Of a stretch of 64,000 nucleotides of DNA, positions 480-48,945 are shown in pieces (the first letter of the stretch is position 1; the number at the start of each line of letters is the position of its first letter). Source of the stretch: an uncultured Verrucomicrobiota bacterium (GTDB lineage: Bacteria > Verrucomicrobiota > Kiritimatiellia > RFP12 > UBA3636); the NCBI GenBank assembly GCA_947169825.1, contig CAMVRE010000002.1, positions 1,248-65,247 of the forward strand, written 5' to 3'. The notes under the pieces were generated by a model, which saw only the letters and a program-made list of their open reading frames with translations, had not been told where the DNA came from and made no database searches. The position numbers and the translations under genes were made by a program.

Positions 480-968
480 CTAGCGGTTGTTTTTTCTAAT
501 GATTCGATTGAATTCGCTCATCTTGCGACCGATGGGCATCCCTTCGCCGACGATGCAAATGTGCTTGATGTGCTTCACAAGGTTGGCGTAGTATGCTTTT
601 CCCGTCAGGAAAACGATGCGATCCTTCTCCAGATCGACCCCCTCCTCCCGCAGTTGCTCCAGAACCTTGTCCGCCCATTCCCGACGGTAGGCCGCCGGCT
701 GTTTGGACAGAAGCATATTGTAGTTTCGCAGTTTTGTTTCCGGCTTGACGAGATGGTGCTTGGCCGAAAGGATGTAGACGGCGTCCGGCTTCATCGAGTC
801 GGCACATTCCAGAGCTTTCTTGAACAGCGGACCCGTGTACAGTTCCGCGGCCGCCAAAGGTATCTTGCTGTTTCTTTTCGTGGCCGAGCAAGGAACCAAT
901 GCAATCGTTTTCATCGAAGTTCTTTTGTGGATGTGCTTGTGCGGGTTCGAGCCCTTTGCGTTTGCCAT
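480..968 (-). CDS. DUF6884-like protein (function unknown)
   Basis: 162-aa ORF. AGGAGG lies 7 nt upstream of ATG 968. KTIALVPCSATK...AAELYTGPLFKKAL...DAVYILSAKHHLVKPETKLRNYNMLL...REWADKVLEQL...IVFLTGKAYY resembles my recollection of the DUF6884 family pattern. GC is lower than in the flanks. Confidence 0.6.
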   Translation of the reverse strand: MANAKGSNPHKHIHKRTSMKTIALVPCSATKRNSKIPLAAAELYTGPLFKKALECADSMKPDAVYILSAKHHLVKPETKLRNYNMLLSKQPAAYRREWADKVLEQLREEGVDLEKDRIVFLTGKAYYANLVKHIKHICIVGEGMPIGRKMSEFNRIIRKNNR

Positions 969-1066
969 TATGTTTCCTCCTTTGTTTTGGCGGGGGTGAT
1001 TTCGTGCCGTCGCGGCGCTCCCGCCGCAACGCCGCCAAATTTACCACCCCCGTCGTTTCGGATCAA
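969..1066 (-). promoter_or_regulatory. Portable promoter + 5' leader module, copy 1
   Basis: Minus strand reads TTGATC (comp. 1061-1066), N17, TAAATT (comp. 1038-1043). Then comes the leader GGCGGCGTTGCGGCGGGAGCGCCGCGACGGCACGAAA with a GTTGCGGCG-GGAG-CGCCGCGAC hairpin, then an SD and ATG. The same module recurs at 34320-34414, 35601-35693 and 38521-38613, and truncated at 15377-15410. Confidence 0.5.
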
Positions 1067-1128
1067 GGGAAGTTTTGCGATGCGCCCGCCGCGCATCGGC
1101 CGATTGCTCGCGGCTTCGCCGCTCGGGG

Positions 1129-1235: not shown

Positions 1236-1380
1236 GGAACCAGGCGGCGCAGCCGCCCCACAAAACCTCCGCGAACTCCGCGGACTCCGCGGGAGTTTTC
1301 TCCGGCGCATGGCCCTGCAATCTCTGCGTGGCTACGGCCGGTTCTTGTTGCTTTCCACAAGAGCGGCAACCTTGTTGGAC

Positions 1381-4911: not shown

Positions 4912-5190
4912 TTCACGAGATCTCCCAGAGGTTCGTTCCAGTTGGCGAAGCGGCATCGCTCCGGGGGAAGAATTCTACCACAGCCCGTTGTTTCAGTTCA
5001 AGGCGAAAATGGATATAATTTGCGAAAAAGCCGGAACAGACGGACCCCGGCCCTTCGACGCAATTGACGCAGTCGACCAAGTCGGGCTTCCCCCCTCTCG
5101 CCTTCGGGGGGGGAGCGCCCGATTTCGTCGATTTCGTCGCGGCGTCGATTGCGTCGATGTTCGGCCGGACTTCGGGGGAGTCTTCCCCCC

Positions 5191-5270: not shown

Positions 5271-5308
5271 GTCGGCCCGGCCGCGCACGCAGTCCGCGCC
5301 GCTCGAGG

Positions 5309-5408
5309 AGGACGACGAGACGACGGGCTGACGGGACGACGAGAAATCGCGCCACCCTTTCCGAAGGTTCGGGGAGGCGGCTCCCGTCGTCTTGTCGTCC
5401 CGTCGTCG
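5309..5408. repeat. Repeat family A, copy 2
   Basis: GGACGACGAGACGACGGGCTGACGGGACGACGAGAAATCGCGCCACCCTTTCCGAAGGTTCGGGGAGGCGGCTCCCGTCGTCTTGTCGTCCCGTCGTC. Confidence 0.7.
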
Positions 5409-5526
5409 TGTCGGGAAACGGGTCTCGCGCTAGCATCAAATGCGAAATGTCCGGCCTGAGTGCAAGAAGGGTTTTTAGGATTCGGGTGCTAGGCGTCGTT
5501 TCGGGTTACGTGATTCACGAAACCTG

Positions 5527-8087: not shown

Positions 8088-8223
8088 TCGAGACGGAAAG
8101 AAAGATGTTATGTCGATTGTTTGAAAAACCGTTGGTTCTTCGTGGTTGAAACGTCATTGCCGCCGTACTCGTCCGGCAACGATGGAAACGACTTGTTGAA
8201 AAAATTGTTGACTTCTACTCGAA

Positions 8224-9324: not shown

Positions 9325-9425
9325 GGCGTTGTCTCCTTTGCGGGTTGCTGGTTGTGAAGAGTGGATGATGCGGTGGAACGGCTGTGGCGTTTTCGCCCGC
9401 GCGCAGTGGGCGGGCAACAAGAGGA

Positions 9426-9455
9426 AGTATAGCACGCCGACGGGTGGGAGTTCAA
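9426..9455 (-). promoter_or_regulatory. Sigma70-like promoter TTGAAC-N18-TATACT upstream of the 8224-9324 gene
   Basis: Minus strand: TTGAAC (comp. 9450-9455), an 18-nt spacer, TATACT (comp. 9426-9431). Confidence 0.4.
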
Positions 9456-9474
9456 GGGTAATTTGCGGATTTGC

Positions 9475-9535
9475 AGGGCGTGGCGGGATGGAGACCCCGC
9501 CACGCCCGCATCGGCCGGGCTCCCGCGGCTTCGGC
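9475..9535. repeat. Repeat family B
   Basis: GGGCGTGGCGGG...CCCCGCCACGCCCGCATCGGCCGG...CTCGCGGCT, a CGTGGCGGGG/CCCCGCCACG hairpin with a conserved tail. Other copies lie at 13884-13960, 32666-32740 and 34416-34492, with partial copies at 1085-1128 and 35712-35735. Confidence 0.6.
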
Positions 9536-9543
9536 GCGCAAGG

Positions 9544-9651
9544 AGGACGACGAGACGACAGGCTGACGGGACGACGAGAAATCGCGCCTCCTTTGCCGGA
9601 GGATCGGGGAGGCGTCTCCCGTCGTCTTGTCGTCCCGTCGTCTTGTCGTCC
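9544..9651. repeat. Repeat family A, copy 3
   Basis: GGACGACGAGACGACAGGCTGACGGGACGACGAGAAATCGCGCCTCCTTTGCCGGAGGATCGGGGAGGCGTCTCCCGTCGTCTTGTCGTCCCGTCGTCTTGTCGTCC. Confidence 0.7.
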
Positions 9652-9707
9652 AGAGACGGCTGTCACAGGGGGAAATCCTCCCCCGCTCGCGGCCGCGTCG
9701 CGGAATC

Positions 9708-9766
9708 GGACGGACTTGCGAGCCCTAGTCGGCCCTGCGGTCGGCGCAAAGGCGGAAGGAATCCGA
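9708..9766. repeat. Repeat family G: 3' module carrying the last FGE-type codons, a stop and downstream sequence; free-standing here after ligA
   Basis: 44 nt, GGACTTGCGAGCCCTAGTCGGCCCTGCGGTCGGCGCA(A/G)AGGCGGAAG, are shared with 14340-14383, where they encode ...FRLCADRRAD-stop of the FGE gene. 31 nt are shared with 37880-37912. A related GGACTTGCGGGACC abuts the stop at 32856. Confidence 0.5.
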
Positions 9767-13845: not shown

Positions 13846-13978
13846 GTCGTTCTCCTTTCTTTGCGGCCTCGCAGGTTTCGCGGCCTCGCAGGGCGTGGCG
13901 GGGTCTCCGCCCCGCCACGCCCGCATCGGCCGGATGCTCGCGGCTTCGCCGCTCGGGGATTTCCCGCGGTTATGTTCC

Positions 13979-14350: not shown

Positions 14351-15376
14351 CTAGTCGGCCCTGCGGTCGGCGCAGAGGCGGAAGCCGAGGTCGTCCATCG
14401 CGGAGACGAAACACTTGAGATTGCACTCGTAAGCCGGTTGGCGCTCGCGACTGGAAGCCTTCGCCCGCCGGCCGCCGCAGTAGATTCCTTTGTACCCGCA
14501 GTTGCTCGCGGTCCATTCCCCGACCAAGCCGAGCATGTCGTGGAGGCCGAACGCATTGGCGCGCTTTCTGCCGACCGGCGGCAAATCTTCAGAAGTGCCA
14601 TTCCACTCGCCATCGCCCCATGAGACGGTATCGAGGTTCTCTTCCGTGATCTCCACGCCGTCTTCCCGAAGGCAGTAGTCGCCCTTCGATCCGGCGCGAC
14701 AGGCGTATTCCCACTCCTCCGCCGTCGGGAGGCGGAACGAGAGTCCCGAGCTCTTCACGGCGTCCAGTTCGTTCAGCTTCTCGAGAAAACGCTCGCACAC
14801 GCCGTCGTAGGCAATCACCATGTAACGCCGCCACACGTCCTCCCACTCTTCTTCCCCATAATATTCCCGGAACTCATCCTCCCCCTGGTCCTCGAAGGGG
14901 TAGTAGTCGCGCGGGCAGTCCGTGTGGGGAAGGTCGGCGTCGGCCTTCCTCGGGCGAGCGCCGCCCAAAACGGCCCACCATTGCCTGTTCGTCACGGGGA
15001 AAACGCCCATGAACAGTCCCGACGGGAGTTCCTTCATCACGAGGTCGACGCCCTTTCGGGGTAGCGGAACGGTCACGGTCTGAAGAGCCTTTCCGCGGTT
15101 GCGCGCGATTCCGTCCGCGATCTTCTTTTCCGCCTCCGCCTTCGCATCCCGCTCGGCGATCTTCTTGAGAAGGTGCTCGCGGATGCCCTCCATGGTATCG
15201 CCAAGCATGAGCAGCCCGGCCAGGCTTTCCCTAGCCCGTTCCGGAGTCATCCCCGACTCGATCGCGAGCTCTTCGAGGGTCATCGAGGAATAGTCCGGCG
15301 CCGCCTTCTTGACGGATGCCTTCTTCGCGGGAGTTTTCGTAGGTGCCTTCTTCGCGGGCGTCTTCTTCTGTGCCAT
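14351..15376 (-). CDS. FGE/SUMF1-family (formylglycine-generating-enzyme fold) domain protein with Lys/Ala/Pro-rich N-terminal tail
   Basis: Track ORF 14351-15724, trimmed to ATG 15376 (AGGAG upstream). N-terminus MAQKKTPAKKAPTKTPAKKASVKKAAP. The FGE blocks are GVFPVTNRQWW..., SGLSFRLPTAEEWEYACRAGS, NAFGLHDMLGLVGEWT and GFRLCADRR. Confidence 0.8.
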   Translation of the reverse strand: MAQKKTPAKKAPTKTPAKKASVKKAAPDYSSMTLEELAIESGMTPERARESLAGLLMLGDTMEGIREHLLKKIAERDAKAEAEKKIADGIARNRGKALQTVTVPLPRKGVDLVMKELPSGLFMGVFPVTNRQWWAVLGGARPRKADADLPHTDCPRDYYPFEDQGEDEFREYYGEEEWEDVWRRYMVIAYDGVCERFLEKLNELDAVKSSGLSFRLPTAEEWEYACRAGSKGDYCLREDGVEITEENLDTVSWGDGEWNGTSEDLPPVGRKRANAFGLHDMLGLVGEWTASNCGYKGIYCGGRRAKASSRERQPAYECNLKCFVSAMDDLGFRLCADRRAD

Positions 15377-15410
15377 TTTGGTTTCTCCTGTGCCGTCGCG
15401 GCGCTCCCGG
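15377..15410 (-). promoter_or_regulatory. Truncated copy of the portable leader module (promoter part missing) between the recD stop and the FGE start
   Basis: The minus strand reads CTAG-CCGGGAGCGCCGCGACGGCACAGGAGAAACCAAA-ATG. Only the 3' half of the leader hairpin and the SD survive, abutting the recD stop at 15411. Confidence 0.45.
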
Positions 15411-32655: not shown

Positions 32656-32855
32656 CCGAGCATGGCGGCCTCGCGGGGCGTGGCGGGGTCCGCACCCCGC
32701 CACGCCCGCATCGGCCGGATGCTCGCGGCTCCGCCGCTCGGCGCCGCTCCGCGCACGGAAGCCCGAAGGCCGGGCGTGCGCGGAGCGAAGCGGAGAGCCA
32801 ACGCCCGTTCGGTCCCGCGGCGTTGCGCCGCGGGACAGGACGGACTTGCGGGACC

Positions 32856-34319
32856 TCACTTCCCCTTCCGCTTCTTCGCGAACTGCGGCTGCGCGGCGAG
32901 GAGCGTCTTCCAGTCCGCGGCCTTGAGCGTCTTCCAGACGCACTTGTCCGCGAACTCCGGCCGCGCCGAGAGCAGCGCCGCCCAGTCCGCGCCCGACAGC
33001 TCGGCCCATTTGTTGCACCACTCCGCCATCTCGGGGCGGGCGACCAGCAGCTTCACCAAGTTCCCGGGGGACAGGCTGCTCCGAAGGTCGAGTCGATCCT
33101 CCTTGCGGAGCTTGGAGATGTCGCACCGGGCCGCGAATTGCGGCTGGGTCGCAAGAAGACTGGCCCAGTTCCCGCCGCTGAGCTTCGACCATTTGCACCG
33201 ATCCGCGAACTGCGGTTGACTCCTCAGCAGATACACCCAGTCGTCGCCGCTGAGCTTCGACCACCAGCACCGCTCCGCGAACTGCGGTTGCGCGGGGCCG
33301 CCGTTTCCGGTGAGGAGACTCGCCCAGTCCCAGCCTTTTAGCTTCGACCAGTCGCAATGGTCCGCGAGCAGCGGCTGCTGGGCGAGGAGACATTTCCAGT
33401 CGTTCCCGTCCAGCTTCGACCAGTCGCATTTGTCCGCGAACTGCGGCTGCTTGGCGAGGAGTTTCGCCCAGTCGCCGCCGTCCAGCGTCGACAAGTCGCA
33501 CTTGTCCGCGAACTGCGGTTGCGCAGCAAGGAGCTCGGCCCAAAACCCGCCGAACGGTCTGCCTAGCCAGCCGCGTCCCAGCTTTGACCAGTCGCACTTG
33601 TCCGCGAACTGCGGCTGCTCGGCGAGGAGACTCGCCCAGTCGCCGCCGCCCAGCGTTGATAAGTCGCACTTGTCCGCGAACTGCGGCTGCGCGGCAAGGA
33701 GCCTGGTCCAGTAGTAGCGGTCCAGCTTCTCCAAGTCGCAATGGGCGGCGAGTTGCGGCTGCTTGATCAGAAGTTTGAACGCCTCCTCCACGCGGTCGCT
33801 CTCCTCCCAGGAGTTGTCCTTCCTCGTGAAGTAGAAGATGTCGGCCCATTTGTCGCATAGGTCGGCGAACTGCGGCTGCGCCGTCAGCAGACGGATCCAG
33901 GACCGAGCGGACAGTTCGGCCCATTTGTCGCATCGGTCCGCGAACTGCGGCTGCTCGGCGAGGAGGTTCGCCCAACCCTCGCCGTCCAGCTTCGGCCATT
34001 TCGGCATCGATTCGGCCATGGACGGATGCCTCCCGAGGAGCTGGCTCCAGTCATCGGACTCCATCTTGGACGGGGCGCATCGGCCGACGAACTGCGGCTG
34101 CGCCTGAAGGAGCTGGAACCAGTGGCGACGGACCAGCTTGCCCCAGTCCACCGGCCGGCACTCGGCGGCGCGTTCCGGATGCTTGGCCAGGAGCGCGGCA
34201 AGATTGTCCGCGGACAGGCGCGACAGAGAGGCGGGTGGCTTCTTTGCGGACGGCGCGGGCTGGTTCGGAGCGGGCTTCTTCGCAGCGGTCTTTGCGGTCG
34301 TTTTCTTCTTCTGTGCCAT
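32856..34319 (-). CDS. W-repeat protein: about 15 tandem 24-residue repeats, Lys/Ala/Pro-rich N-terminal tail
   Basis: Track ORF 32856-34625, trimmed to ATG 34319 (MAQKKKTTAKTAAKKPAPNQPAPSAKKPP). Example repeats: DWAKLLAKQPQFADKCDWSKLDGN, DWKCLLAQQPLLADHCDWSKLKGW, DWVYLLRSQPQFADRCKWSKLSGG. Confidence 0.7.
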   Translation of the reverse strand: MAQKKKTTAKTAAKKPAPNQPAPSAKKPPASLSRLSADNLAALLAKHPERAAECRPVDWGKLVRRHWFQLLQAQPQFVGRCAPSKMESDDWSQLLGRHPSMAESMPKWPKLDGEGWANLLAEQPQFADRCDKWAELSARSWIRLLTAQPQFADLCDKWADIFYFTRKDNSWEESDRVEEAFKLLIKQPQLAAHCDLEKLDRYYWTRLLAAQPQFADKCDLSTLGGGDWASLLAEQPQFADKCDWSKLGRGWLGRPFGGFWAELLAAQPQFADKCDLSTLDGGDWAKLLAKQPQFADKCDWSKLDGNDWKCLLAQQPLLADHCDWSKLKGWDWASLLTGNGGPAQPQFAERCWWSKLSGDDWVYLLRSQPQFADRCKWSKLSGGNWASLLATQPQFAARCDISKLRKEDRLDLRSSLSPGNLVKLLVARPEMAEWCNKWAELSGADWAALLSARPEFADKCVWKTLKAADWKTLLAAQPQFAKKRKGK

Positions 34320-34414
34320 TTTTGGTTTCTCCCGTGGCGGGGTCTGCTTCGTACCCTCGCGACGCCCCCGCCGCAACGCCGTCCAGTCTACCACCGCGCG
34401 CGCTTCCGAATCAA
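34320..34414 (-). promoter_or_regulatory. Portable promoter + leader module, copy (TTGATT-N18-TAGACT)
   Basis: Minus strand: TTGATT (comp. 34409-34414), TAGACT (comp. 34385-34390), leader GGACGGCGTTGCGGCGGGGGCGTCGCGAGGGTACGAAG...GGGAGAAACCAAAA-ATG. The hairpin is kept with one G-T wobble. Confidence 0.5.
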
Positions 34415-34493
34415 GCGGCCTCGCAGGGCGTGGTGGGGTCTGCACCCCGCCACGCCCGCATCGGCCGGAATCTCGCGGCTCGCCGCTCGTGGG

Positions 34494-34592
34494 GGACGAC
34501 GAGACGACGGGCTGACGGGACGACGGGAAATCGCGCCTCCTTTCCCGAAGGATCAAGGAGGCGTCTCCCGTCGTCTTGTCGTCCCGTCGTCC
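34494..34592. repeat. Repeat family A, copy 4
   Basis: GGACGACGAGACGACGGGCTGACGGGACGACGGGAAATCGCGCCTCCTTTCCCGAAGGATCAAGGAGGCGTCTCCCGTCGTCTTGTCGTCCCGTCGTCC. The inner stem is CGCCTCCTT/AAGGAGGCG. Confidence 0.7.
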
Positions 34593-34682
34593 TTGGACGG
34601 CCGTCACACGGGGCGGCTTTCCCACACGGCGGCCGATTCTATGGGTTTCGTGCCGTGCGGGGCCAATCGATCTTTGGGAAAA

Positions 34683-35600
34683 TCACTTGCTGCGCAGTTG
34701 GCGAAGGGGATGCAGTTGGCAAAGGGGTTTAATGAGTGACGGCTTTAGTTTTTCGTCCATTTCGTCCGTGATATACTTGATACATTTGCAGGGCGCCTTG
34801 CTCTTCTTGTTTTTCGCGGCAATCGCAAACAGAAACATTTCCAATTCGCCGATGGAGATTCCTTTGTTCCGACATTTTTTGGAGTAATCGTATGTTCCTT
34901 TTAACAGTTGACAATACCTTTCGTACGTTTCGCGCTTGGAGTAATAGAATTTGTCGACGGCGAAATTCTTGTAGGCCAAGTTGAAAATGGTTTCTTGATC
35001 GTGTATGTCCATGTCACCATTTCGGGCGGCAGGTTGTCTGAAAAACATCATCTCGCCACCGTCTATTGTATGCCATCCATTGGTAAAGATCAGCCAGTTC
35101 AACGTGAATGCAACGCGAGAGTCGTACACGGGATATTTTTCGCTGTCGAGAAATGAAGCGACCTTCGAAAGGGACGAAATTCCGTCGAAGCCAATGACAC
35201 CGGCATAATCGTCCGAATTGTTCTTTTTGTCTTTGATTGTATTTCGCAATTCATTGAGCGAATCTTCTTTGGGAACTGAATTGATCTTGCCCCACTCGCC
35301 AACGATCCATTTTGCAATTTTCAAATATGTCTCATCGTCTTGTTTTGACAAAATCTTCGAGAATCTGGATTTTGCTTCCAAGGTTAGTCTGGCCGGGTTA
35401 TCTTTGAATTTTGCGAGTGCCTTTTTGATTTTGTCACATTCAGCCAATTCCATTCCACTGAGAGAATTCAATGGAAAGGGCCAAACGTAGTAGCCTTTGA
35501 GTTCCGTGTTCAACTCGACCTCGAACTTTTCCAGCAGGGCCTTGTAAACTGTTTCCGGAAACAAGCTGGTTTCATTCGAGGGTTCGTTATGCTTCGCCAT
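34683..35600 (-). CDS. Hypothetical 305-aa protein (AT-rich island 3)
   Basis: Track ORF 34683-36197, trimmed to ATG 35600 (MAKHNEPSNETSLF...) at the GC drop. IAKWIVGEWGKINSV...GISSLSKVASFLDSEKYPVYDSRVAFTLNWL is faintly reminiscent of 'OGG-fold' glycosylase-like hypothetical proteins; confidence in that function is very low. Confidence 0.65.
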   Translation of the reverse strand: MAKHNEPSNETSLFPETVYKALLEKFEVELNTELKGYYVWPFPLNSLSGMELAECDKIKKALAKFKDNPARLTLEAKSRFSKILSKQDDETYLKIAKWIVGEWGKINSVPKEDSLNELRNTIKDKKNNSDDYAGVIGFDGISSLSKVASFLDSEKYPVYDSRVAFTLNWLIFTNGWHTIDGGEMMFFRQPAARNGDMDIHDQETIFNLAYKNFAVDKFYYSKRETYERYCQLLKGTYDYSKKCRNKGISIGELEMFLFAIAAKNKKSKAPCKCIKYITDEMDEKLKPSLIKPLCQLHPLRQLRSK

Positions 35601-35693
35601 TTTGTTCTTTGTTTTAGCGGGGTTGGTTTCGTGCCGTCGCGGCGCTCCCGCCGCAACGCCTCCCAGTCTACCACCGCGCGCGCTGCGGTTCAA
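35601..35693 (-). promoter_or_regulatory. Portable promoter + leader module, copy (TTGAAC-N17-TAGACT)
   Basis: Minus strand: TTGAAC (comp. 35688-35693), TAGACT (comp. 35665-35670), leader GGGAGGCGTTGCGGCGGGAGCGCCGCGACGGCACGAAACCAACCCCGC...ATG. Confidence 0.5.
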
Positions 35694-35734
35694 GGGAGAT
35701 TCGCGGCGCGGCGGCCTCGCAGGGCGTGGCGGAT

Positions 35735-36310
35735 TCAGGGACGGCGGGCCAGGTGGCTCCCGGGGTCCAGCAGGAACGGAACGAGGCCGATGGTTTCGAT
35801 GCCCGTCTCGTCCGTCCACGGCTTCTCGAAGCCGCCGGTCACGACGATCTTCCGGAAGAAGTCCCCCGTTTTGCGCAGGGATTCCGTCTCCTGCCTGCGC
35901 TTTTCCGCGTCGGGGACCGCGTAGGCCGACTGGATGTAGACCTTCCCGGCCCCGTCGTTCACGACGAAATCGATCTCCCGCCGGACGTGTTCCTTGTCCG
36001 GTCCGGAGCCTTCCGTGGTCTCGACGACGCCGACGTCGACCGAACAGCCGCGCCCGACGAGTTCGTTGTAGAGGACGTTCTCCATGAGGTGCGCCGGCTC
36101 CTGCTGCCGGAAGTTCGTCCGAGCGTTGCGCAGGCCGACGTCCGTCGCGTACCACTTGGAGGGCGCGGACAGATAGCGCCCGCCCTTCACGTCCCACCGG
36201 TCGGCCCTTTGGAACAGGAAGGCGTCCTCGAAATACTTTAGGAACTTCCGGTGGAAACCCACCGCCCCTGAAAACGACTGGCAGTTAGAAGAGGTTTGGC
36301 GAATTGTCAA
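35735..36310 (-). pseudogene. 5'-truncated AAA-ATPase gene (DUF4143-type C-terminal part only)
   Basis: KFLKYFEDAFLFQRADRWDVKGGRYL..KWYATDVGLRNA...HLMENVLYNELVGRGCSVDVG...REIDFVVNDGAGKVYIQSAY matches the C-terminal part of AAA_14/DUF4143 ATPases. The Walker A/B part is absent, and repeats D and the CCCGTCATT motifs lie upstream. Confidence 0.55.
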
Positions 36311-36371
36311 GCGTTATTTTCCAATCTGGTGGAATTCCACCGGATCGGAAAATTCATACCGCCAACGGCGG

Positions 36372-36425
36372 CCCGTCATTTGCCGGCGAGCCGGCACCCG
36401 TCATTCCGCCGAAGGGGACCGTCAT
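36372..36425. repeat. Short CCCGTCATT + hairpin array (3 units)
   Basis: CCCGTCATT at 36372 and 36397 and a degenerate GACCGTCATT at 36417, separated by TGCCGGCGAGCCGGCA and CCGCCGAAGGGG. Confidence 0.6.
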
Positions 36426-36596
36426 TCCGGCGAAGGCTGCCCCCGCGAAGCGGACTTCCCCCGCACCGCGGCCGGTCGACGAAAGGACAACAGGACACCA
36501 GGACAAAAGGTCGCGCCCCGCTCGCCGAAGGGACAAGGGGCCGTGCGACCAGGTCGCCCGCGCGCCTTCGGCGGAGGGCCGTCAGCCGGAGAACCT

Positions 36597-37366
36597 TCAA
36601 CGGGCCGGCTGCAGGAACATCGCCATGTAGTGCGGAAGCGTAATCTTCTTTCCGACGACTCCGACGTTTCCCCCCGTGAGCTTGTAGCCGAACGGGATCG
36701 ACGGATTGGCGAGAAGCTTGTCCAGCGAGAGTGTCGCCCCCGTTTTCGCCTTCACTTCAACCGGGACGACGCCGTCCGCCGACTCGACGAGGAACTCCAT
36801 CTCGAGCCGTCCGCCGTCTTTGCTGTGGTAGAGCAGGGGGAAGCCGTTGCGCTCCAGGACGCCCGCGACGAGGTTCTCGTAGACGCCGCCCTTGAGCGAG
36901 CCGGCGAGCGTGCCTGCGCGCACTGCACGTCGCCGAAGTGCGGTTCGTCGACGAACCCCGAGACGACTTCCGGCATTCCCCCGACGACGGCGTATTCGCG
37001 CAGCAGCCGGTGGAACGTTTCGTTCACGGCCTCGGGCACCTTTTCGCGCCGTTCGAAATACGGGCGAAGGACATCGATCCGTTCATCGTCCCAGCCCTTC
37101 GCCCACAGGTATTCCCGGAACGAGAGCGAGTGCATCGTGACCTGCCGCTCGAACCCGACGGGGACGGACTTGGGCTGCCGGTCCTTGCGGCGCTTGTACT
37201 TGATGCCCAGCAGCGAGCCGGACGCGACCACGTCGCACCGGCCGTCCTGCGCGAGGAACTTCATCGCCGTCCGGGCGTTCGGGCATTCCTGGATCTCGTC
37301 GAGGAAGAGCAGCGTGCCGTAGAATTCCCGTTTCAGTTCGGCCATGGCGTCTCTTTCCCCATCCAC
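36597..37366 (-). pseudogene. Second DUF4143-type ATPase gene: 5'-truncated, frameshifted, internally shortened
   Basis: Two overlapping frames are involved. Frame 36752-37366 reads LLFLDEIQECPNA (Walker B)...SGSLLG...SFREYL...VVGGMPEVV. Frame 36597-36923 reads KGGVYENLVAGVLERNGFPLLYH...LEMEFLVESADGVVPVEVKAKTG. There is no Walker A region and the frames switch near 36905-36925. Confidence 0.6.
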
Positions 37367-37634
37367 CCGTCTTCGGCGGTGGAAAACGGCGCGATTCTAC
37401 GCCGTGTTGCATCTTTTTGCAACTTGAAAAACGTCCATGTGCAACTTTTTGCAAGATACATTTTCGGAGAATGCCGGTTTTTGCGGGCCGGGCTTCGGGG
37501 GAGGCCAGCCCCCGCGCCACGGCCGGTCGATGACATCGACGACGCCGACGACATCGACGACCCGCGCACGGAAGGCCGAAGGTCGATGGTGCGACCGGAA
37601 TCAGAGCCGCCCGGCTCCGCCGGCGGAGCCGGCA

Positions 37635-37875
37635 CCCGTCATTCCGCGAAGGCGGCCCGTCATTTGCCGGCATAGCCGGCACCCGTCATTCCGCCGAAGG
37701 CGGCCCGTCATTTCCGCGAAGCGGACCCGTCATTTGCCGGCAAGCCGGCACCCGTCATTTCCGCGAAGCGGACCCGTCATTCCGCCGGAGCCGGCACCCG
37801 TCATTCCGCCAAAGGCGGCCCGTCATTTGCCGGCAGAGCCGGCACCCGTCATTCCGCCGAAGGCGGCCCGTCATT
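37635..37875. repeat. Array of 11 direct CCCGTCATT motifs, each separated by a 12-17-nt GC mini-hairpin
   Basis: Motif starts at 37635, 37656, 37682, 37704, 37726, 37751, 37773, 37797, 37819, 37845 and 37867 (spacing 21-26 nt). The spacers are CCGCGAAGGCGG, TGCCGGCATAGCCGGCA, CCGCCGAAGGCGG, TCCGCGAAGCGGA, TGCCGGCAAGCCGGCA and so on; all are self-complementary. Confidence 0.85.
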
Positions 37876-38520
37876 GGATGCGGCCCTGCGGTCGGCGCAG
37901 AGGCGGAAGCCGATCGCGATGTCCCAGAGCCAGTGCCGGTCCGCGGCCCGGTAGGAGGACTCCACCGCCGCGTTCAACCAGCTGCCGCCGCAATAGACGC
38001 GGCCATTGCCACTCGTGGCGGTGTTCGTCCACTCCCACACGTTGCCGTGCATGTCGTAAAGCCCGAACGCATTCGGCTTCTTCAGTCCGACAGGATGCGT
38101 CTTTCCGTCCGAGTTGTCCCTGTACCACGCGACCTTGCCGAGCGTCTTCCCCGTGATTTCCGTCCCGTCCGCGAGCTTGCAGTAGTCGCCCTTCGCGCCG
38201 GCGCGGGCGGCGAACTCCCACTCCTCATCCGTCGGCAGGCGGAACACCAGGCCGGACCCCTTCGCGGCGGGCTGTGCGTTGAGCGTCTCCAGAAACTCCC
38301 GGCAATCATCGCACGAAACGCGCTCCACGGGATTCTTCGCGCCCTTGAACCGAGCGGAGTTCCAGCCCATCACGGCCTCCCACTCCGCCTGCGTGACCGG
38401 GAACCGGCCCATCCGGAAGCCCCTGCTGGGAATCGGGACCATCGAGGCGACGATGTCCTCGACGACCGCGGGATCGACGGAGGCGGCCTCCTTCTTCGTG
38501 ACGATCTTCTCCTGTTCCAT
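37849..38520 (-). CDS. FGE/SUMF1-family domain protein (223 aa, domain only)
   Basis: Track ORF 37849-38940, trimmed to ATG 38520 (GGAGGAG upstream). GRFPVTQAEWEAVMG, NPVERVSCDDCREFLETLNA, LVFRLPTDEEWEFAARAG, NAFGLYDMHGNVWEWT, CGGSW, GFRLCADRR. The last 11 codons and the stop lie in the first unit of the CCCGTCATT array. Confidence 0.8.
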   Translation of the reverse strand: MEQEKIVTKKEAASVDPAVVEDIVASMVPIPSRGFRMGRFPVTQAEWEAVMGWNSARFKGAKNPVERVSCDDCREFLETLNAQPAAKGSGLVFRLPTDEEWEFAARAGAKGDYCKLADGTEITGKTLGKVAWYRDNSDGKTHPVGLKKPNAFGLYDMHGNVWEWTNTATSGNGRVYCGGSWLNAAVESSYRAADRHWLWDIAIGFRLCADRRAASNDGPPSAE

Positions 38521-38613
38521 TCTGGCTCCTCCTGTGGCGGGGTCGTTTTCGTGCCGTCGCGGCGCTCCCGCCGCAACGCCGCCCAGTCTACCACCGCGCG
38601 CGATACGGTTCAA
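38521..38613 (-). promoter_or_regulatory. Portable promoter + leader module, copy (TTGAAC-N17-TAGACT)
   Basis: Minus strand: TTGAAC (comp. 38608-38613), TAGACT (comp. 38585-38590), leader GGGCGGCGTTGCGGCGGGAGCGCCGCGACGGCACGAAAACGACCCCGCCACAGGAGGAGCCAGA-ATG. Confidence 0.5.
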
Positions 38614-38904
38614 GGAAGTTTTCGGCCGCCACCGGGGGGCGGGGGAGCGCCCCGCACCGCGGCCGTGATTCGTCCGCGCTATGGCGCCAGCAGCGTGTCG
38701 GCCGGGACGAGGAAGTCGAACCACCCCCGGCGAACGACGGACGGCGCCAGCTCCCCGTCGTAGACGAGCGCGGTCCGGACCGAAAGGCCCGAGGCGGGGA
38801 AGAAGCGACTTGAGGTTGTTCGGGTGTCGGCTGCGGGAGAAGTTTCCCTGTCTTCCTTGTTCGACGGACAGGATCCGGCCGGGGGGGGGAGCCAGCCGTC
38901 CGAG

Positions 38905-40231: not shown

Positions 40232-41035
40232 TTACCGTGGCCCTCGTGGAATGTTGTTTTCCATGTTCAGATCCTCGTATTTCATTCCCATACAGGATTC
40301 GAATCGGTCCTTGAACTCCGGCTGGCTCCGCAATAGTGTGCGCCAGTCATCGATGCCAAGTTTCTTCCAGTCGCAAAAATGCTGGAATTCGATTCTGGGC
40401 TTCTTCGACAGGAGTTCCGACCAGTCCTTGCCGTCGAGCAGACTCCATTTGCACGGCATGAAAACGGCGTTCAGCACGAATCCCGGGACGCCGCGCATCC
40501 AGAAGTGCAGAAGGAAGTCCCGCCAGTCCCGGCCCGTGAAGTGATTGAACCGGCATCGGGAGAGGTCGTGGTTCCAGTTGAGGATCATCGCCTGGACCGC
40601 CCCTCCCTGTTTTCCGGCGTCCACGAGTTCCAGTTTTTTTAGGAGCGGCCGCCGGGGCTGCATCCATTTGCGTCGCGTCTTTTCGTTCGCTTCTTCGAGG
40701 CTGAACGATGTTTTCCCAGGATGGGCCGGGTCTCGGACATTCATCCCTTCGAATCCCATCGTTTCGAGGTCGCCTCCGTCGAATTCCTCCCAGCGGTCGC
40801 ATTTCTCCGCGAGCTGCGGCTGCCGACTGAGCAGCGCGGCCCAGTCCTCCTTGCTCCATTCCGCGGCGGACGACCAGTCCCACCGTGCGGCGAACCCGGG
40901 TCGTCTGCACAGCAGGTAGTGCCAGGCCTTTCCGTCGAACGACATCCAGTCGCACTCGTCCGCCGCTCCCGATCGTTCGCAGAGCAGCTTCGCCCATTCG
41001 ATCCCCGTCCGTGGGACGGTCTTGTTCTCTTTCAT
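40232..41035 (-). CDS. W-repeat protein paralogue (267 aa)
   Basis: IEWAKLLCERSGAADECDWMSFDGKAWHYLLCRRPGFAARWDWSS...EDWAALLSRQPQLAEKCDRWEEF...KDWSELLSKKPRIEFQHFCDWKKLGIDDWRTLLRSQPEF. The start lies 1 nt after the GT9 stop. Confidence 0.65.
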   Translation of the reverse strand: MKENKTVPRTGIEWAKLLCERSGAADECDWMSFDGKAWHYLLCRRPGFAARWDWSSAAEWSKEDWAALLSRQPQLAEKCDRWEEFDGGDLETMGFEGMNVRDPAHPGKTSFSLEEANEKTRRKWMQPRRPLLKKLELVDAGKQGGAVQAMILNWNHDLSRCRFNHFTGRDWRDFLLHFWMRGVPGFVLNAVFMPCKWSLLDGKDWSELLSKKPRIEFQHFCDWKKLGIDDWRTLLRSQPEFKDRFESCMGMKYEDLNMENNIPRGPR

Positions 41036-43802: not shown

Positions 43803-45206
43803 TCAAGAGGAGAACGACTTCCAGAAATTCGGGTCGCCGAGCGCCGCGATTCCACGCTCGACGGCCGCGTCGTCATGGTGATAAGTGTGTTTTTTGCCCT
43901 CTTCGTCCTCGTACGTTTCGTCCCACACCTTGTATCGCCGCAGTTTCGGGCACCGCGCGACAATCCGGTCCGCGGCATCTTCGGGCAGGTCTCCCCAGCG
44001 GCATTTATTCGCGAACTGCGGTTGTTTCGGCAAGAGGAAGATCCAATCCTCCGGCGAAAAACCGGACCAGCCGTCGAAAAACTCGGCTTCCTCCGGATGT
44101 TCCGCGAGGCGGGCCGCCCAGTCGGAAACGGCTTCCCGCTCCCGTTCCTCTTCCTCTTCCCGGCGTCGCCGCTCTTCTTCCTCCTGCTGGCGTCTCCTCG
44201 CCGCTTCTTCCTCCCGGCGTTTTCGCCGCTCTTCCGCTTCCTGGCGCTTCCGCGCCTCTTCCGCCTCCCGACGCTTTCTCTCCGCTTCCTCCTTCTGCCG
44301 GATCCGCTCCTTTTCCGCCTCCACCTCCTCGGACCATTCCTTCGGGAGAGACGCGACGGCCGGACGCTTGTCCGGCCCCTTCGCCAGGCGCAGGGCGGCG
44401 TCGAGAGCTGGCTGCATTTCGTCCGTGGCGTCGCGCGGGAAACCCAGGCGCTCCAGCGCTCCGGGAAGGCACGCCTTGTATGCGACCCGTTTTGTCGAGG
44501 CGGCACGTTCCGTCCGGATCGCCGCGACGATCTCCTCGAGCGGAATCCGGTCGAACGCGCGCCGTGAGCGCGGGTCGAGCGTCGGGGCGCGGAACCGATC
44601 ATAGGCGGCCGGATCCGCGCCGGCGGGCCAGAAGACCAATTCGTCGAGGCGCGACGTGAGCGGTCCCAACGACTCGATGGCAAGGCAAAGGCCCGCGTGG
44701 AAGACGAGGCGGCGTTGATCGTCGGTTTGATCGCCCGTCCACCATTCTTCCATCGCCCGCTCGAAAAGAAGACTTTCCGTAACGGGTCCTTCCTTCCCGA
44801 CAATCCGAAGAATCTGGTCGCGGATGATGGCCGGTCCCGCGGTAAGATTGAATTTGGACGAGTGGTAGGTTTTCCCTTTTTCCTCCGGCTCGTAAGGCGT
44901 CGCCCCCGCGCGCCTGATCCGCTCCAGCGCCTCGGCTTCCTCCCGCGCCTTCTTCTCCGCGGCCGCCTTTCGCTCGGCCTCCCGGCGGGCCAGGGCGGCC
45001 TCCTCGCGGGCCCGGGCGGCCGCCGCGGCTTCCGCCCGCTTGCGCGCCGCCTCGGCTTCGGCGGCCTTTTTCCGCTCCTCCTCGGCCTTCGCCTCGGCGA
45101 TGGCCGTCTCGACCGCGGACTTGGCGTTCTTGACGGCCTTGACCCCGGTTTCGGCCGCGGCGATGCCCGTGCGGACGATTTTCTTCAGCAATGATTCAAA
45201 GCGCAT
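43803..45206 (-). CDS. Hypothetical 467-aa protein: two charged coiled-coil segments, a central domain, and a C-terminal W-repeat module
   Basis: Track ORF 43803-45632, trimmed to ATG 45206 (MRFESLLKKIV...). It has two E/R/K/A-rich stretches. The central region GPVTESLLFERAMEEWW...LVFWPAGADPAAYDRFRAP...IPLEEIVAAI is faintly DUF3320-like. The C-terminus has SDWAARLAEHPEEAEFFDGWSGFSPEDWIFLLPKQPQFANKCRWGDL. Confidence 0.6.
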   Translation of the reverse strand: MRFESLLKKIVRTGIAAAETGVKAVKNAKSAVETAIAEAKAEEERKKAAEAEAARKRAEAAAAARAREEAALARREAERKAAAEKKAREEAEALERIRRAGATPYEPEEKGKTYHSSKFNLTAGPAIIRDQILRIVGKEGPVTESLLFERAMEEWWTGDQTDDQRRLVFHAGLCLAIESLGPLTSRLDELVFWPAGADPAAYDRFRAPTLDPRSRRAFDRIPLEEIVAAIRTERAASTKRVAYKACLPGALERLGFPRDATDEMQPALDAALRLAKGPDKRPAVASLPKEWSEEVEAEKERIRQKEEAERKRREAEEARKRQEAEERRKRREEEAARRRQQEEEERRRREEEEEREREAVSDWAARLAEHPEEAEFFDGWSGFSPEDWIFLLPKQPQFANKCRWGDLPEDAADRIVARCPKLRRYKVWDETYEDEEGKKHTYHHDDAAVERGIAALGDPNFWKSFSS

Positions 45207-45831: not shown

Positions 45832-46093
45832 TGGGTCGGCTGGGTGCGGGGTGCAAACGAGGAAGGGCCCTTCCGTCGCGGTTCCCCTGAGGCCCTGGAA
45901 AAGCCCGATCAAGAAACGCGAAGGAAGGGACGTGCAATGCACGCACCCTGCCGACAGGCCGCCTTTGATCTTTTGAACTTTCCAGGTTTCAGGGGATCGG
46001 CGGTTTGCAGCGGTGCAAATCTGGCGCGAAGTCTAGCAGACCCGCGTCGGCAAATCAACACCGTTTTCGCGCTTCTTGATCGGGGAGAATGCA

Positions 46094-46152
46094 AGGTTGA
46101 AGGGGGGAAGGGGTTGAAGGGGTTGAAAGGGGTTGAAGGGGTTGAAAGGGGA
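46094..46152. repeat. Tandem GGGGTTGAA(A) 9-10-nt repeats (5 GTTGAA cores)
   Basis: GTTGAA at 46096, 46113, 46122, 46132 and 46141. The minus strand reads CCCTTTCAACCCCTTCAACC... The array lies between the kinase stop and the membrane-protein gene. Confidence 0.7.
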
Positions 46153-48831: not shown

Positions 48832-48945
48832 GGGTAAAGTTGAAAGGGAAAAGTGTAAAGTTGAAAAGGTTGAAGGGGTTGAAGAGTTGAAAAGCGAACA
48901 ACTTTAGACTTTAAACTTTAGACTTTAAACTTTCAACTTCTGCAT
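48832..48945. repeat. AT-rich simple-repeat block: 5 GTTGAA cores, then (AAACTTTAGACTTT)~2.5 and an inverted TTCAAC
   Basis: GTTGAA at 48839, 48860, 48869, 48878 and 48886; ACTTTAGACTTTAAACTTTAGACTTTAAACTTTCAAC spans 48901-48937. The block covers the kinase upstream region, the sigma-factor stop and the last ~10 sigma codons. Confidence 0.7.

Follow-up and report, generated by a model that had tools for sequence, protein, structure and literature searches.

A probable lineage-specific, reused expression-plus-N-tag module ahead of accessory genes in uncultured Kiritimatiellae

Conserved blocks that carry expression signals for otherwise different genes have been described in several bacteria. 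The upstream homology box (UHB) of the Borrelia burgdorferi ospE/ospF/elp (erp) family, which Marconi and colleagues reportedly described in 1996, is said to be a conserved upstream block with expression signals across diverse genes, and reportedly favours recombination between these genes. These are lipoprotein genes on the cp32 prophage plasmids of a spirochaete. Stabilising stem-loops at the 5' terminus are represented by the E. coli ompA leader and the STAB-SD element of Bacillus cryIIIA mRNA. Putative mobile promoters (PMPs; Matus-Garcia, Nijveen and van Passel, Nucleic Acids Res 2012), as summarised in PMC3575422, show at least 80% similarity over at least 50 nt upstream of non-homologous genes in one genome; according to this summary, some families are common to several taxa, the spread mechanism is unknown, and neither an Rfam family nor a known mobile element is involved. 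The PMP screen, by the same summary (PMC3575422), covered only the region from -150 to -50, and pairs with similar adjacent coding sequence were dropped. Neisseria Correia elements, ERIC and REPIN are short intergenic repeats that are also able to give their neighbours promoters (PMC3575422).

In this study, a repeated sequence was investigated in one window (the whole 64,000-nt stretch of DNA that was analysed) and in related metagenome contigs. Like the PMPs, this module is a highly similar sequence upstream of non-homologous genes, with no Rfam or mobile-element match. The preliminary description had placed nearly the same sequence before five unrelated genes, and all five sites were recovered at its coordinates on the minus strand, as four full copies and one truncated copy (chance expectation 0); two of the five cargo genes, however, are FGE paralogues with 38.5% amino-acid identity over the aligned part. 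The protein lengths given earlier as 306, 224 and 342 aa are corrected here to 305, 223 and 341 aa; the other two proteins have 162 and 487 aa. The 31-nt core GTTGCGGCGGGAGCGCCGCGACGGCACGAAA has three exact occurrences in the window as against 0 in 100 shuffles. The copies are as follows:

966..1073, minus strand: copy 1, subtype A, before the DUF6884 gene; -35 TTGATC at 1061-1066, -10 TAAATT at 1038-1043, hairpin at 1009-1030, SD GGAGGA, ATG at 966-968
15374..15410, minus strand: truncated copy; the loop, hairpin 3' arm, a shortened leader, SD GGAGAAA and ATG (15374-15376) are retained
34317..34421, minus strand: copy 3, subtype C, with a D8 repeat touching the -35; -35 TTGATT at 34409-34414, 18-nt spacer, -10 TAGACT at 34385-34390, variant hairpin at 34356-34377 (loop GGGG, one G.T pair, one terminal mismatch), ATG at 34317-34319
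35598..35699, minus strand: copy 4; -35 TTGAAC at 35688-35693, -10 TAGACT at 35665-35670, hairpin at 35636-35657, weak SD AAAGAAC, ATG at 35598-35600
38518..38622, minus strand: copy 5, canonical; AAAACTTCC upstream, -35 TTGAAC at 38608-38613, 17-nt spacer ending TGG, -10 TAGACT at 38585-38590, GC-rich GGGCGGC, hairpin GTTGCGGCG-GGAG-CGCCGCGAC at 38556-38577, GGCACGAAA at 38547-38555, SD GGAGGAG at 38526-38532, ATG at 38518-38520

The divergent copy had been said to keep its pairing through a G-T wobble; one such wobble is indeed retained, but the terminal pair is lost too. The earlier observation that one promoter is cut off by the recD stop was borne out, as the truncated copy abuts the TAG (15411-15413) of the RecD-like gene, the end of which stands where the promoter and 5' arm would be. 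An identical truncation was noticed in a close relative (L040/L041), and a fuller counterpart with promoter is present in L019, where the FGE protein is 96% identical. In L023, the D8 repeat and the promoter half of the module lie about 370 nt past recD, and the contig end cuts the module. Copy 5 and its orthologue in L022 share 96% identity.

The module comprises about 125 nt, with promoter, hairpin leader, ribosome site, ATG and lysine-rich codons. Resemblance among the window copies extends beyond the ATG into the first codons, so that the unit is larger than noted before and takes in the ATG and 6-25 lysine-rich codons (MAQKKK.TAKK; consensus ATG GCA CAG AAG AAG AAA .. ACC GCG AAG AAG). 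The promoter-like elements are TTGAAC, TTGATC or TTGATT, a spacer of 17 or 18 nt ending TGG (extended -10 TGn), and TAGACT or TAAATT. Only 8 of 12 positions match the promoter consensus and a simple promoter scan did not call a promoter; the transcription start and promoter activity are predicted from sequence. A near-invariant block from -20 to +45 covers the -10 region, GGGCGGC, the hairpin and GGCACGAAA, the last of which is kept in one copy (L031b) although the hairpin sequence is altered. Lysine-rich N-termini are nearly confined to ORFs placed behind the module. A lysine-rich tail is also found on the FGE protein of L025, a relative that lacks the module; the tail can therefore exist independently of the module.

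The cargo genes in the window are:

480..968, minus strand: cargo 1, DUF6884 protein of 162 aa (Pfam PF21818, E=1e-33; PADLOC match PDC-M57A, E=2e-37), with an 18-aa basic N-terminal extension ahead of the ancestral Met (MKTIALVPCS)
14351..15376, minus strand: cargo 2, FGE-sulfatase-domain protein of 341 aa with the lysine-rich N-terminus MAQKKTPAKKAPTKTPAKKASVKK
32856..34319, minus strand: cargo 3, protein of 487 aa with N-terminus MAQKKKTTAKTAAKK, then W-repeats of about 24 aa (D/W..LL..QPQFADKCDW); no match in a Pfam search
34683..35600, minus strand: cargo 4, AT-rich protein of 305 aa (GC 0.44 in a 0.66 window); no Pfam hit and no family match
37849..38520, minus strand: cargo 5, FGE-sulfatase-domain protein of 223 aa

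The 3' ends of the 341-aa and 223-aa FGE genes are identical across 33 nt, and genes related to the W-repeat gene follow degenerate or promoter-only module copies in L002 and L031. As a separate observation, the FGE-domain cargo genes bear the signature of diversity-generating-retroelement (DGR) variable regions, and the C-terminal 40 aa or so of cargo 5 (about 37882-38001) form a hypervariable region of DGR type; these genes look like DGR variable proteins, a point missed in the preliminary description.

Across the window and the related contigs, which belong to Kiritimatiellae/Verrucomicrobia and apparently come from ruminant gut, 32 distinct copies were found. In contrast to the random orientations and positions proposed earlier as the mark of a REP-like repeat, all 32 copies were sense, none inverted and none within a gene, with the start codon in register for nearly all of them, 38-60 nt past the hairpin. 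Behind these copies lie at least nine unrelated protein families (FGE-domain, DUF6884, W-repeat, 305/205-aa pair, 202-aa, 197/234-aa, 244-aa, 215-aa and PDDEXK_4). FGE-domain paralogues follow about half of the copies, in a census biased towards FGE genes by the fetching of some loci through FGE homologues. The non-FGE cargo has a GC of 0.40-0.53, compared with 0.57-0.70 for the contigs. In-frame joining of the module to unrelated ORFs, many of them AT-rich, is observed, and the AT-rich ORFs are probably foreign. The copies cluster mainly by cargo orthology and not by genome, and therefore much of the module similarity is inherited.

Among close genomes, the same ORF was seen with and without the module, and the module with differing ORFs. 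Eleven of 14 DUF6884 homologues begin at MKTIALVPCS, and the three module-bearing copies have 18-29 additional basic residues in frame; the module-less orthologue in L043 uses its own AGGAGG SD and the internal-Met start, with 88.7% nucleotide identity in the core. The comparison gives direct proof that the unit reaches into the coding region. A comparison of cargo behind the same module, as advised earlier, gave a positive result, since one module subtype with its upstream flank precedes different genes in the window and in L002. Window positions 961-1273 and L002 positions 6593-6927 have upstream repeats and module in common up to ATGGCAAA, where homology ends; past it stands the DUF6884 gene in the window and a gene for an unrelated 202-aa protein in L002. 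Between the window and L022, RecD shows 47.5% amino-acid identity, with 0.52 at third positions and 0.59 in the RecD upstream region, compared with 0.94-0.96 for the module and 0.80 at FGE third positions. Such high module identity despite the diverged RecD reflects either constraint or exchange.

The module makes up the 3' half of an inter-gene linker of 200-290 nt, which had been overlooked. In the linkers the blocks follow a single order, from the terminator-like hairpin through the D8 repeat and the promoter to the leader; on the upstream side, the copies show three kinds of junction. For copy 3 the other half is:

34415..34597, minus strand: upstream half of the linker, with the long palindromic D7 repeat and the D8 repeat

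The D8 repeat there contains the hairpin GGCGTGGTGGGG..CCCCGCCACGCC and ends right at the -35.

These data are probably best explained by a lineage-specific, reused expression-plus-N-tag module, the cargo of which is exchanged via linker recombination and not by transposition of its own. A sigma-70-type promoter (TTGAAC, 17 nt ending TGn, TAGACT) with a GC-rich discriminator would drive the cargo, and the predicted transcript would begin 2-4 nt ahead of a stable 9-10-bp hairpin, followed by the conserved GGCACGAAA, an A-rich Shine-Dalgarno region free of structure, the ATG and the lysine-rich stub. Accessory genes may thus gain host-type transcription and translation signals together with a common basic N-terminus. 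Stabilisation of mRNA by a 5'-terminal stem-loop is established in E. coli, and the 5'-proximal hairpin most likely shields the mRNA 5' end. The module would spread and swap its cargo, also between lineages, when the repeated linkers undergo homologous or illegitimate recombination with one another.

Single-sequence folds form the hairpin, with total leader free energies of -23 to -30 kcal/mol and a mostly open SD region, and its sequence is conserved among copies. The covariation test found a single compensatory pair, a result equalled by 102 of 500 shuffles, which leaves the helix unsupported by this test; in a manual tally of decayed copies, about 12 changes were pair-breaking and about five pair-keeping, roughly as expected from neutral drift. 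The loop, suggested earlier as a possible target of a shared regulator, varies in sequence among copies (GGAG, GGGG, AGG, AAGGT, GGGA). A U.G pair, possible on the sense strand only, is kept in 22 of 25 copies. The loop length shifts from 4 to 3 nt, which argues against a double-stranded DNA dimer operator. These features bear on a dedicated regulon, in which a trans-acting factor would recognise the block from -20 to +45 and co-regulate the cargo genes, being either an RNA-binding protein or small RNA on the hairpin (for example CsrA-like, with GGA in loop and SD) or an inverted-repeat repressor. Such a regulon is compatible with module reuse and would put the cause of conservation in regulation. 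It would suit the 65 nt that are almost invariant where the RecD proteins are only 47.5% identical, the occurrence of GGA in both the canonical loop GGAG and the SD about 35-40 nt apart, the GGCACGAAA retained in L031b, and a cargo that appears themed (DGR-type variable proteins, a candidate defence protein, nuclease-like proteins). We nonetheless regard it as unlikely, as the loop varies and GGA is lost in several copies, the arm spacing shifts in a manner intolerable for a dimeric DNA binder, covariation is lacking, and the arrays in the window have no candidate regulator gene linked to them.

The term mobile, as applied earlier, holds for reuse before unrelated and paralogous accessory genes, but is unsupported in the transposable-element sense. 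The module lacks target duplications and consistent terminal inverted repeats, and no Rfam family, phage or plasmid match was found for it; Pfam searches of the window found no transposase or RAYT-like gene, and neither the window nor the called genes of the fetched loci yielded an integrase or other recombinase. A selfish intergenic repeat (REP/REPIN or MITE-like) near gene starts, with incidental promoter-like hexamers, is therefore very improbable. Other intergenic repeats are abundant (long palindromic D7, D8 hairpins, D9 hairpin arrays), and the leader motif CCCCGCCAC recurs as an arm of the D8 hairpin, both in favour of this explanation; against it, the 32 copies share one orientation and a fixed register to the start codon, the SD, ATG and coding codons belong to the unit, and the upstream junctions are of three kinds.

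Co-duplication of the upstream region with FGE genes, other resemblances being secondary or misread, would fit the many FGE paralogues and the clustering by cargo orthology, but it is largely refuted by the DUF6884 orthologues with and without the module and has almost no likelihood left, given at least eight further cargo families with no detectable FGE similarity, the different cargo in the window and L002, and a module remnant common to FGE paralogues only 38.5% identical in protein. Just as improbable is an integron-like cassette system with the hairpin/linker as recombinase site for inserting ORFs behind the promoter. In its favour are the ORF-linker-ORF arrays (linkers conserved, ORFs variable and often AT-rich), cargo junctions that fall precisely at the start codon, and contig L014, 1092 nt long, whose ends carry a 141-nt direct repeat of the kind expected from a circle or tandem repeat. 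An assembler also produces such a contig from a repeat longer than k; the searches above gave no integrase or recombinase, the perfect 22-nt hairpin does not resemble attC sites and has no GTTRRRY core, and every cassette brings a promoter, which integron cassettes do not.

The module can be set beside the known systems. Unlike the region of the PMP screen, it spans the -10, hairpin leader, SD, ATG and 6-25 codons; its host clade is the uncultured Kiritimatiellae, and it is directly documented to have been gained and lost on one orthologue and to have changed cargo. It resembles the UHB as a conserved expression-signal block upstream of diverse genes, though its genes are chromosomal, with no phage or plasmid match, the proteins have no signal peptides and the cargo is more diverse. 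As in ompA and STAB-SD, the hairpin, with a purine-rich, SD-like loop (GGAG/AGG), lies a few nucleotides from the 5' end, but here this end is a predicted one and covariation does not support the helix. Correia, ERIC and REPIN elements have terminal inverted repeats and occur in both orientations, whereas the module does neither and contains the start codon. Short, often foreign ORFs between conserved structured linkers recall integron arrays. The module loci differ in having no integrase or attC-like site and a separate promoter for every ORF, and in that their conserved sequence sits at the ORF 5' end and runs into the coding region. The module is thus not a new type of system but a clear new example, from the Kiritimatiellae, of a reused ("mobile") promoter.

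We observed that a fixed block of promoter-like elements, leader, SD, ATG and basic codons, about 125 nt long and hereafter called the module, is attached in frame to unrelated ORFs (its cargo), that it is strongly conserved, and that it is present or absent on one and the same orthologue. The five sites of the preliminary description exist as described, all on the minus strand of the window:

480-968, minus strand: DUF6884 gene, behind the module
14351-15376, minus strand: FGE-sulfatase-domain protein, behind a truncated module copy
15377-15410, minus strand: the fifth, truncated copy, keeping only loop, 3' arm, shortened leader, SD and ATG
32856-34319, minus strand: W-repeat protein of 487 aa, behind the module
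34683-35600, minus strand: AT-rich 305-aa protein, behind the module
37849-38520, minus strand: FGE-sulfatase-domain protein, behind the module

To call these five genes unrelated was slightly overstated, since the FGE pair is paralogous (38.5% identity).

The 31-nt core GTTGCGGCGGGAGCGCCGCGACGGCACGAAA occurs exactly three times in the window against none in 100 shuffles, and a repeat search of the window returned the module as a family of four 98-nt members (D10), whose window copies are 64-83% identical to the 98-nt reference without gaps. According to the MAFFT alignment, similarity among the copies begins about 10 nt upstream of the -35 and extends through the ATG; mean pairwise identity among 28 module copies is 0.79, with many pairs at 0.85-0.98. 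The promoter segment of the module reads GGTGGTAGACTGG ... ACGAA, and the canonical copy (38518-38622, minus strand) consists of the following elements, 5' to 3' on the coding strand:

5' block upstream of the -35: AAAACTTCC
-35: TTGAAC, then 17 nt ending in TGG (extended -10 TGn)
-10: TAGACT, then GGGCGGC
Hairpin: GTTGCGGCG-GGAG-CGCCGCGAC, then GGCACGAAA
Variable stretch: 10-20 nt with CCCCGCCAC inside
Start region: GGAG(G/A)A..CAAA, then ATG

With TTGAAC, 17 nt and TAGACT, this promoter-like element agrees with the sigma-70 consensus at 8 of 12 positions and adds the TGn extended -10; a simple sigma-70 scan makes no call here because its threshold is 9 of 12. The elements are kept in at least 30 module copies, and the promoter is a plausible one. 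An ECF-sigma promoter was rejected since the CGT-type -10 is absent, and the LexA box of Verrucomicrobia, which we take to be TGTTC-N4-GAACA, is likewise absent from the module.

Past the ATG, most copies read on as GCA CAG AAG AAG AAA .. ACC GCG AAG AAG (MAQKKK.TAKK), a stub that is often followed by more AKKAP-type repeats. Seventeen ORFs were found to have at least five lysines in their first 15 residues, and 14 of them are module-driven; the sole clear exception that is a real gene encodes an FGE protein in a module-less relative. The DUF6884 family displays the limits of the block most directly. Eleven of 14 homologues start at MKTIALVPCS, and the three that bear the module (window, L044 and L004, the L numbers denoting related contigs and loci collected for comparison) are extended in frame by 18-29 basic residues ahead of that methionine. 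The core coding sequence of the L043 homologue is 88.7% identical to that of the window, yet it has no module, uses its own AGGAGG SD and starts at MKT, whereas the full module and the extension are both present in the L044 homologue (90.8% identical). Over about 10% of nucleotide divergence, then, the module was gained or lost as one block, start codon included. The earlier notion of a portable expression module was largely right, and it is extended here to the ATG, the N-terminal tag and a larger linker.

With reference to distribution, among the GTDB genomes, scanned at one per species, the core is present only in L001, the MAG of an uncultured member of the Verrucomicrobia. A metagenome scan with a 21-nt hairpin pattern yielded 20 contigs, of which 11 hold the full module; in the remaining nine the GC-rich hairpin alone is matched by chance, and promoter, SD and ATG are missing around it. 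Diverged copies that the hairpin pattern missed were recovered by an nhmmer profile from 16 copies, and further ones came from contigs collected via FGE and DUF6884 homologues. Altogether, the window and the collected contigs harbor 32 distinct full or near-full copies (30 at 55 bits or more, plus two in L044). All 32 lie in sense orientation directly upstream of an ORF, and the in-register ATG fails in only three, through a cut at the contig end, a TTG in place of ATG, and a shifted ATG in a diverged copy. The record of one FGE homologue names a Kiritimatiellae MAG as its source, and sample labels suggest a ruminant-gut origin of the samples. No module was found with the FGE homologues of more distant Kiritimatiellae (GC 0.71 or 0.52-0.57), and searches for the module or its hairpin in viral contigs, phage records and plasmid records gave no match. 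Rfam gave no match over the whole window at gathering score, and at E up to 10 across 38400-38700 only chance-level matches (E 2-6) outside the module.

The suggestion that the module is itself a mobile element is unsupported, as consistent terminal inverted repeats are absent and Pfam detected no integrase, transposase or reverse transcriptase in the window ORFs. A REP, REPIN or MITE identity is countered by the uniform sense orientation together with the lack of a transposase in the window ORFs; for MITEs in particular, the inverted-repeat search round four copies returned GC-rich chance pairs and the shared CCCCGCCAC, with no consistent termini.

It had been proposed to check whether cargo differs behind the same module, and the outcome was positive. 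Window 961-1273 and L002 6593-6927 have in common the repeats D7 and D8 and module subtype A (TTGATC ... TAAATT) up to ATGGCAAA, past which the window continues into DUF6884 and L002 into an unrelated AT-rich 202-aa protein. The upstream neighbour is homologous in the two (88%), and the window has two extra genes between that neighbour and the linker. These linkers, the 200-290-nt spacers between consecutive cargo genes, follow one common block order:

Block 1: hairpin GCGCACG...CGTGCG
Block 2: D8a, GAGCGGCG.AGCCGCGAG
Block 3: D8b, GGCCGATGCG, with or without the hairpin GGCGTGGCGGGG..CCCCGCCACGCC
Blocks 4-6: promoter, then leader hairpin, then SD and ATG

An FGE gene and the W-repeat gene, which is unrelated to it, have a 3' flank in common, GGCTCGCAAGTCCG plus hairpins. 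After D8, two promoters of the window have a -10 of TATACT without the module leader, and one L031 copy joins the module promoter to another leader; the linker blocks therefore recombine. Each cargo ORF has its own promoter-like element, the hairpin start GTTGCGG is unlike GTTRRRY, and neither the window nor the genes called in the loci include an integrase, which sets this arrangement apart from integrons and attC sites.

D8, found at window 1050-1126, 9465-9541, 13880-13956, 32665-32741 and 34415-34491, contains a 12-bp GC hairpin (GGCGTGGCGGGG..CCCCGCCACGCC), one arm of which, CCCCGCCAC, recurs in the module leader; it terminates exactly at the -35 of the next promoter and is terminator- or insulator-like, though without a T-run. 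D7, at 1115-1231, 5297-5413, 9532-9648 and 34481-34597 and also in L002, L008 and L023, is an imperfect long palindrome of 117-150 nt (GACGACGGGACGACAAGACGACGGGAGACGCCTCC ... GGAGGCG ... CCGTCGTCTCGTCGTCC) and thus REPIN/MITE-like; genomes with 65-72% identity in their RecBCD DNA have D7 copies that are 83-92% identical. Tandem arrays of short GC hairpins with a period of about 47-70 nt, separated by AATGACGGG on the coding strand, were also noticed at 37634-37875 and 36354-36427. Such an array starts within the last codons of the 223-aa FGE gene, and the same arrays come after 'SNDG..' type FGE genes in L001, L008 and L035. The 1092-nt contig L014 has a 141-nt terminal direct repeat, its 951-nt unit being module, 234-aa gene and linker, as would be expected if the unit stood in a tandem array or came from an excised circle, or if the assembly had cycled through the repeat.

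The comparison of the window with L022 separates the module from its surroundings. RecD proteins are 47.5% identical, with a third-codon-position identity of 0.52, the 115 nt upstream of recD have an identity of 0.59, and RecBC DNA is 65-72% identical. The orthologous module reaches 0.94-0.96, and the FGE gene behind it about 0.80 at codon positions 1, 2 and 3 alike; the near-neutral sites of the cargo thus change faster than the module that precedes it. Cargo and module together are far more alike than the host backbone, which fits purifying selection on the module and cassette exchange between lineages. The copies mostly cluster by cargo orthology across genomes, not by genome, and hence no wholesale concerted evolution within a genome is seen. 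The module of L035a is closer to that of L035b than to that of its orthologue, and both L044 copies have the GCGAGGTGC loop variant in common, which suggests local exchange in some cases.

The truncated copy adjoins the TAG stop of the RecD-like helicase gene. Its counterpart in L019 (protein 96% identical) has the promoter, though with a 9-nt deletion in the spacer; in L023, D8 and the promoter half of the module lie about 370 nt past recD, where the contig ends; and in L040/L041, a close relative (RecD 96% identical), the truncation is the same as in the window. From these relatives it follows that the FGE gene lost its promoter in the window lineage, and it is probably read from recD.

The cargo proteins fall into at least nine groups without detectable mutual similarity in all-against-all BLASTP, with Pfam matches that differ or are absent: FGE-domain proteins of several architectures, DUF6884, W-repeat, the 305/205-aa pair, 202-aa, 197/234-aa, 244-aa, 215-aa, and PDDEXK_4 (behind a diverged copy). 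Non-FGE cargo has a GC of 0.40-0.53 versus 0.57-0.70 in its contigs. The genes around the window copies encode RecBCD-like proteins, an SbcCD fusion, two ligase-like proteins and cpYpsA (DNA repair). When ten cargo and neighbour proteins were searched against each of PADLOC and NCBIfam, the sole match was that of DUF6884 to the PADLOC candidate defence protein PDC-M57A (E=2e-37). A gene of about 156-177 aa comes after DUF6884 in every case (window 2-469 after 480-968, minus strand; L042, L043, L044) and is annotated PF20815 GIY_YIG_2 in L042-L044; this constant follower and the PDC-M57A match make the two genes a conserved candidate defence pair.

Several further features were noticed among the cargo and its neighbours. 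A protein family with repeats of about 24 aa (W..LL..QPQFADKCDWSKL) has no Pfam, NCBIfam or PADLOC match, and one L002 member has a zinc-ribbon-like motif at its N-terminus. It occurs at the following sites:

Window 8193-9248: three near-identical repeats of 375-381 nt, inside ORF 8224-9666
Window 32865-34141
Window 40307-40930
Window 43986-44051
L002 4252-5841

AAA_14 and DUF4143, usually one ATPase, lie in separate minus-strand ORFs (35735-36310 and 36752-37366) with about 440 nt of repeat-containing DNA between them, and the gene is probably disrupted. The AT-rich minus-strand ORFs 3271-4956 and 5568-8087 (561 and 839 aa), separated by a D7 repeat, have a GC3 of 0.45-0.50 against a usual window value above 0.8 and no match in Pfam, NCBIfam or PADLOC; a foreign origin is probable. 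Short tandem motifs rich in G and A (GGGGTTGAAG-type, period 9-10) at 46093-46148 and 48849-48902 border the Ser/Thr kinase-TPR gene 46384-48831 at both ends.

The FGE cargo genes appear to be DGR-type hypervariable proteins, as read from their substitution pattern. Orthologues are about 95% identical in the body and wildly different in a C-terminal stretch on the fixed scaffold RV.RGG.W...A..C.SS.R....P..R...LGFRLCADRRAD, which in the 223-aa window gene forms this feature:

37882-38001: variable region of the 223-aa FGE gene, found also in L001, L008, L016, L022 and L040

Nineteen codons of this 32-codon region take at least three amino acids among five genes; the third base is fixed in 14 of these 19 and is C in 11, variable codons being of the NNC form, and none of the 47 invariant bases of the region is an adenine. 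The neighbouring 22 codons have an ordinary third-position-biased pattern, with 4/2/8 variable sites at positions 1/2/3. Gene-wide, codon-position 1/2/3 identities are 0.81/0.84/0.80 between window 37849-38520 and L022 7814-8491, and 0.90/0.92/0.89 between the L001 and L016 orthologues; the positions are about equally diverged, which points to relaxed or diversifying selection beyond the variable region. No A-rich template repeat was found in the window or the 44 loci, where an AAC-substituted synthetic template found variable regions only, and no reverse transcriptase (RVT domain) in the called genes of the loci; both may be located elsewhere in the genome. A viral scan with the shared FGE 3' end found nothing. 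The last 33 nt are identical in both window FGE genes (14356-14388 and 37881-37913). An orphan copy (97%) of the last 30 or so nt lies at 9725-9758 (minus strand) with no FGE gene before it, directly after the stop of the LigA-like gene 9768-11609 and carrying the shared 3' flank GGGCTCGCAAGTCCG; it resembles what a deleted cassette would leave behind, or else a product of aberrant recombination or homing. More distant FGE homologues have lipoprotein-type signal peptides in place of the lysine-rich tail, and the apparently DGR-type cargo proteins have no signal peptides, bear histone-like tails and adjoin RecBCD genes.

Concerning the leader, ViennaRNA gave a 10-bp helix, one U.G included, in every leader folded, with the SD region largely open; free energies range from -23 to -30 kcal/mol, with z-scores of only -1.1 to -2.9. 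With transcription predicted to start about 7 nt past the -10, a distance of 2-4 nt would separate the RNA 5' end from the hairpin. In an alignment of 25 copies, 95.6% of the cells of the 10 pairs are paired and a compensatory change occurs in one pair only (G-C to A-U, by way of G.U); of 500 column shuffles of these 25 sequences, 102 reached the covariation score of 0.028, and the power of this test is limited since the copies were found through a hairpin pattern. Later copies show three pair-preserving changes (U.G to U-A, a symmetric 2-nt deletion keeping the stem, and a closing-pair G.U), and many pair-breaking ones occur in the evidently decaying copies L020b, L040a/b, L034 and L022b. A manual tally of about 5 pair-preserving versus about 12 pair-breaking events is much as under neutral drift. 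In sum, the helix has a conserved sequence and is stable in physical terms, and covariation does not demonstrate it. Two weaker points favour a structure in the sense-strand RNA over a dsDNA operator and weaken the latter: the U.G pair is conserved in 22 of 25 copies (a T.G mismatch in DNA, and a C.A mismatch on the opposite strand), and the loop is 3 to 5 nt long, so that the distance between the arms is not constant. Canonical copies have GGA both in the loop (GGAG) and at the SD (GGAG), as in CsrA-type control, an idea weakened by the loop variants GGGG, AGG and AAGGT, which lose the GGA; the reading of a hairpin-binding regulator is unsupported. A long-range pairing between GGCGG, which follows the -10, and CCGCC, which precedes the SD, was dismissed, as by eye its variants do not covary and it appears in one MFE fold only.

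As to mechanism, the module would equip accessory genes, which are often foreign, with signals of host type for transcription and translation. Competing readings are control by a dedicated regulon factor, a selfish repeat, simple paralogy and an integron-like system. The hairpin near the 5' end may stabilise the transcript or bind a factor, the A-rich start region would keep the initiation site unstructured in a 66% GC genome, and the repeated linkers may act as portable homology through which the host recombination machinery exchanges cassettes. A far more inclusive reading can be drawn, which as one claim we regard as a long shot: linker and module would form an integrase-independent cassette system; foreign AT-rich ORFs and DGR-diversified binding proteins would be exchanged at linkers within and between Kiritimatiellae genomes; every ORF would gain the same promoter, leader and lysine-rich tag, the tag targeting a common destination, for example nucleoid or DNA; and the hairpin would link the products to a common regulator, in a conflict or defence regulon. 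The module illustrates concretely a way in which AT-rich genes of foreign origin could become connected to the expression signals of their host in an uncultured gut lineage. Unrelated proteins can thereby gain a common basic N-terminus, whether as by-product or feature, and the module is a candidate expression part for the synthetic biology of Kiritimatiellae and PVC bacteria.

In comparison with known systems, the family of Borrelia genes with an 'upstream homology box' is a conceptual parallel to the module. The nearest relation is to the putative mobile promoters (PMPs), near-identical upstream regions that stand before unrelated genes and make up more than 4000 families, with a mechanism mostly unknown (Matus-Garcia, Nijveen, van Passel; PMC3575422). 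The module shows both of the features tested for PMPs, upstream similarity and non-homologous downstream coding sequences, with the caveat that its copies have the first 6-12 codons in common and the original screen would filter such pairs. Promoter reuse apart from genes is thus already catalogued in thousands of PMPs, but it is rarely resolved to the nucleotide. Here, a single family directly reveals the full extent of the unit, its gain and loss on one orthologue and its differing cargo, and the module reaches beyond the view of that screen, taking in leader, start codon and coding region.
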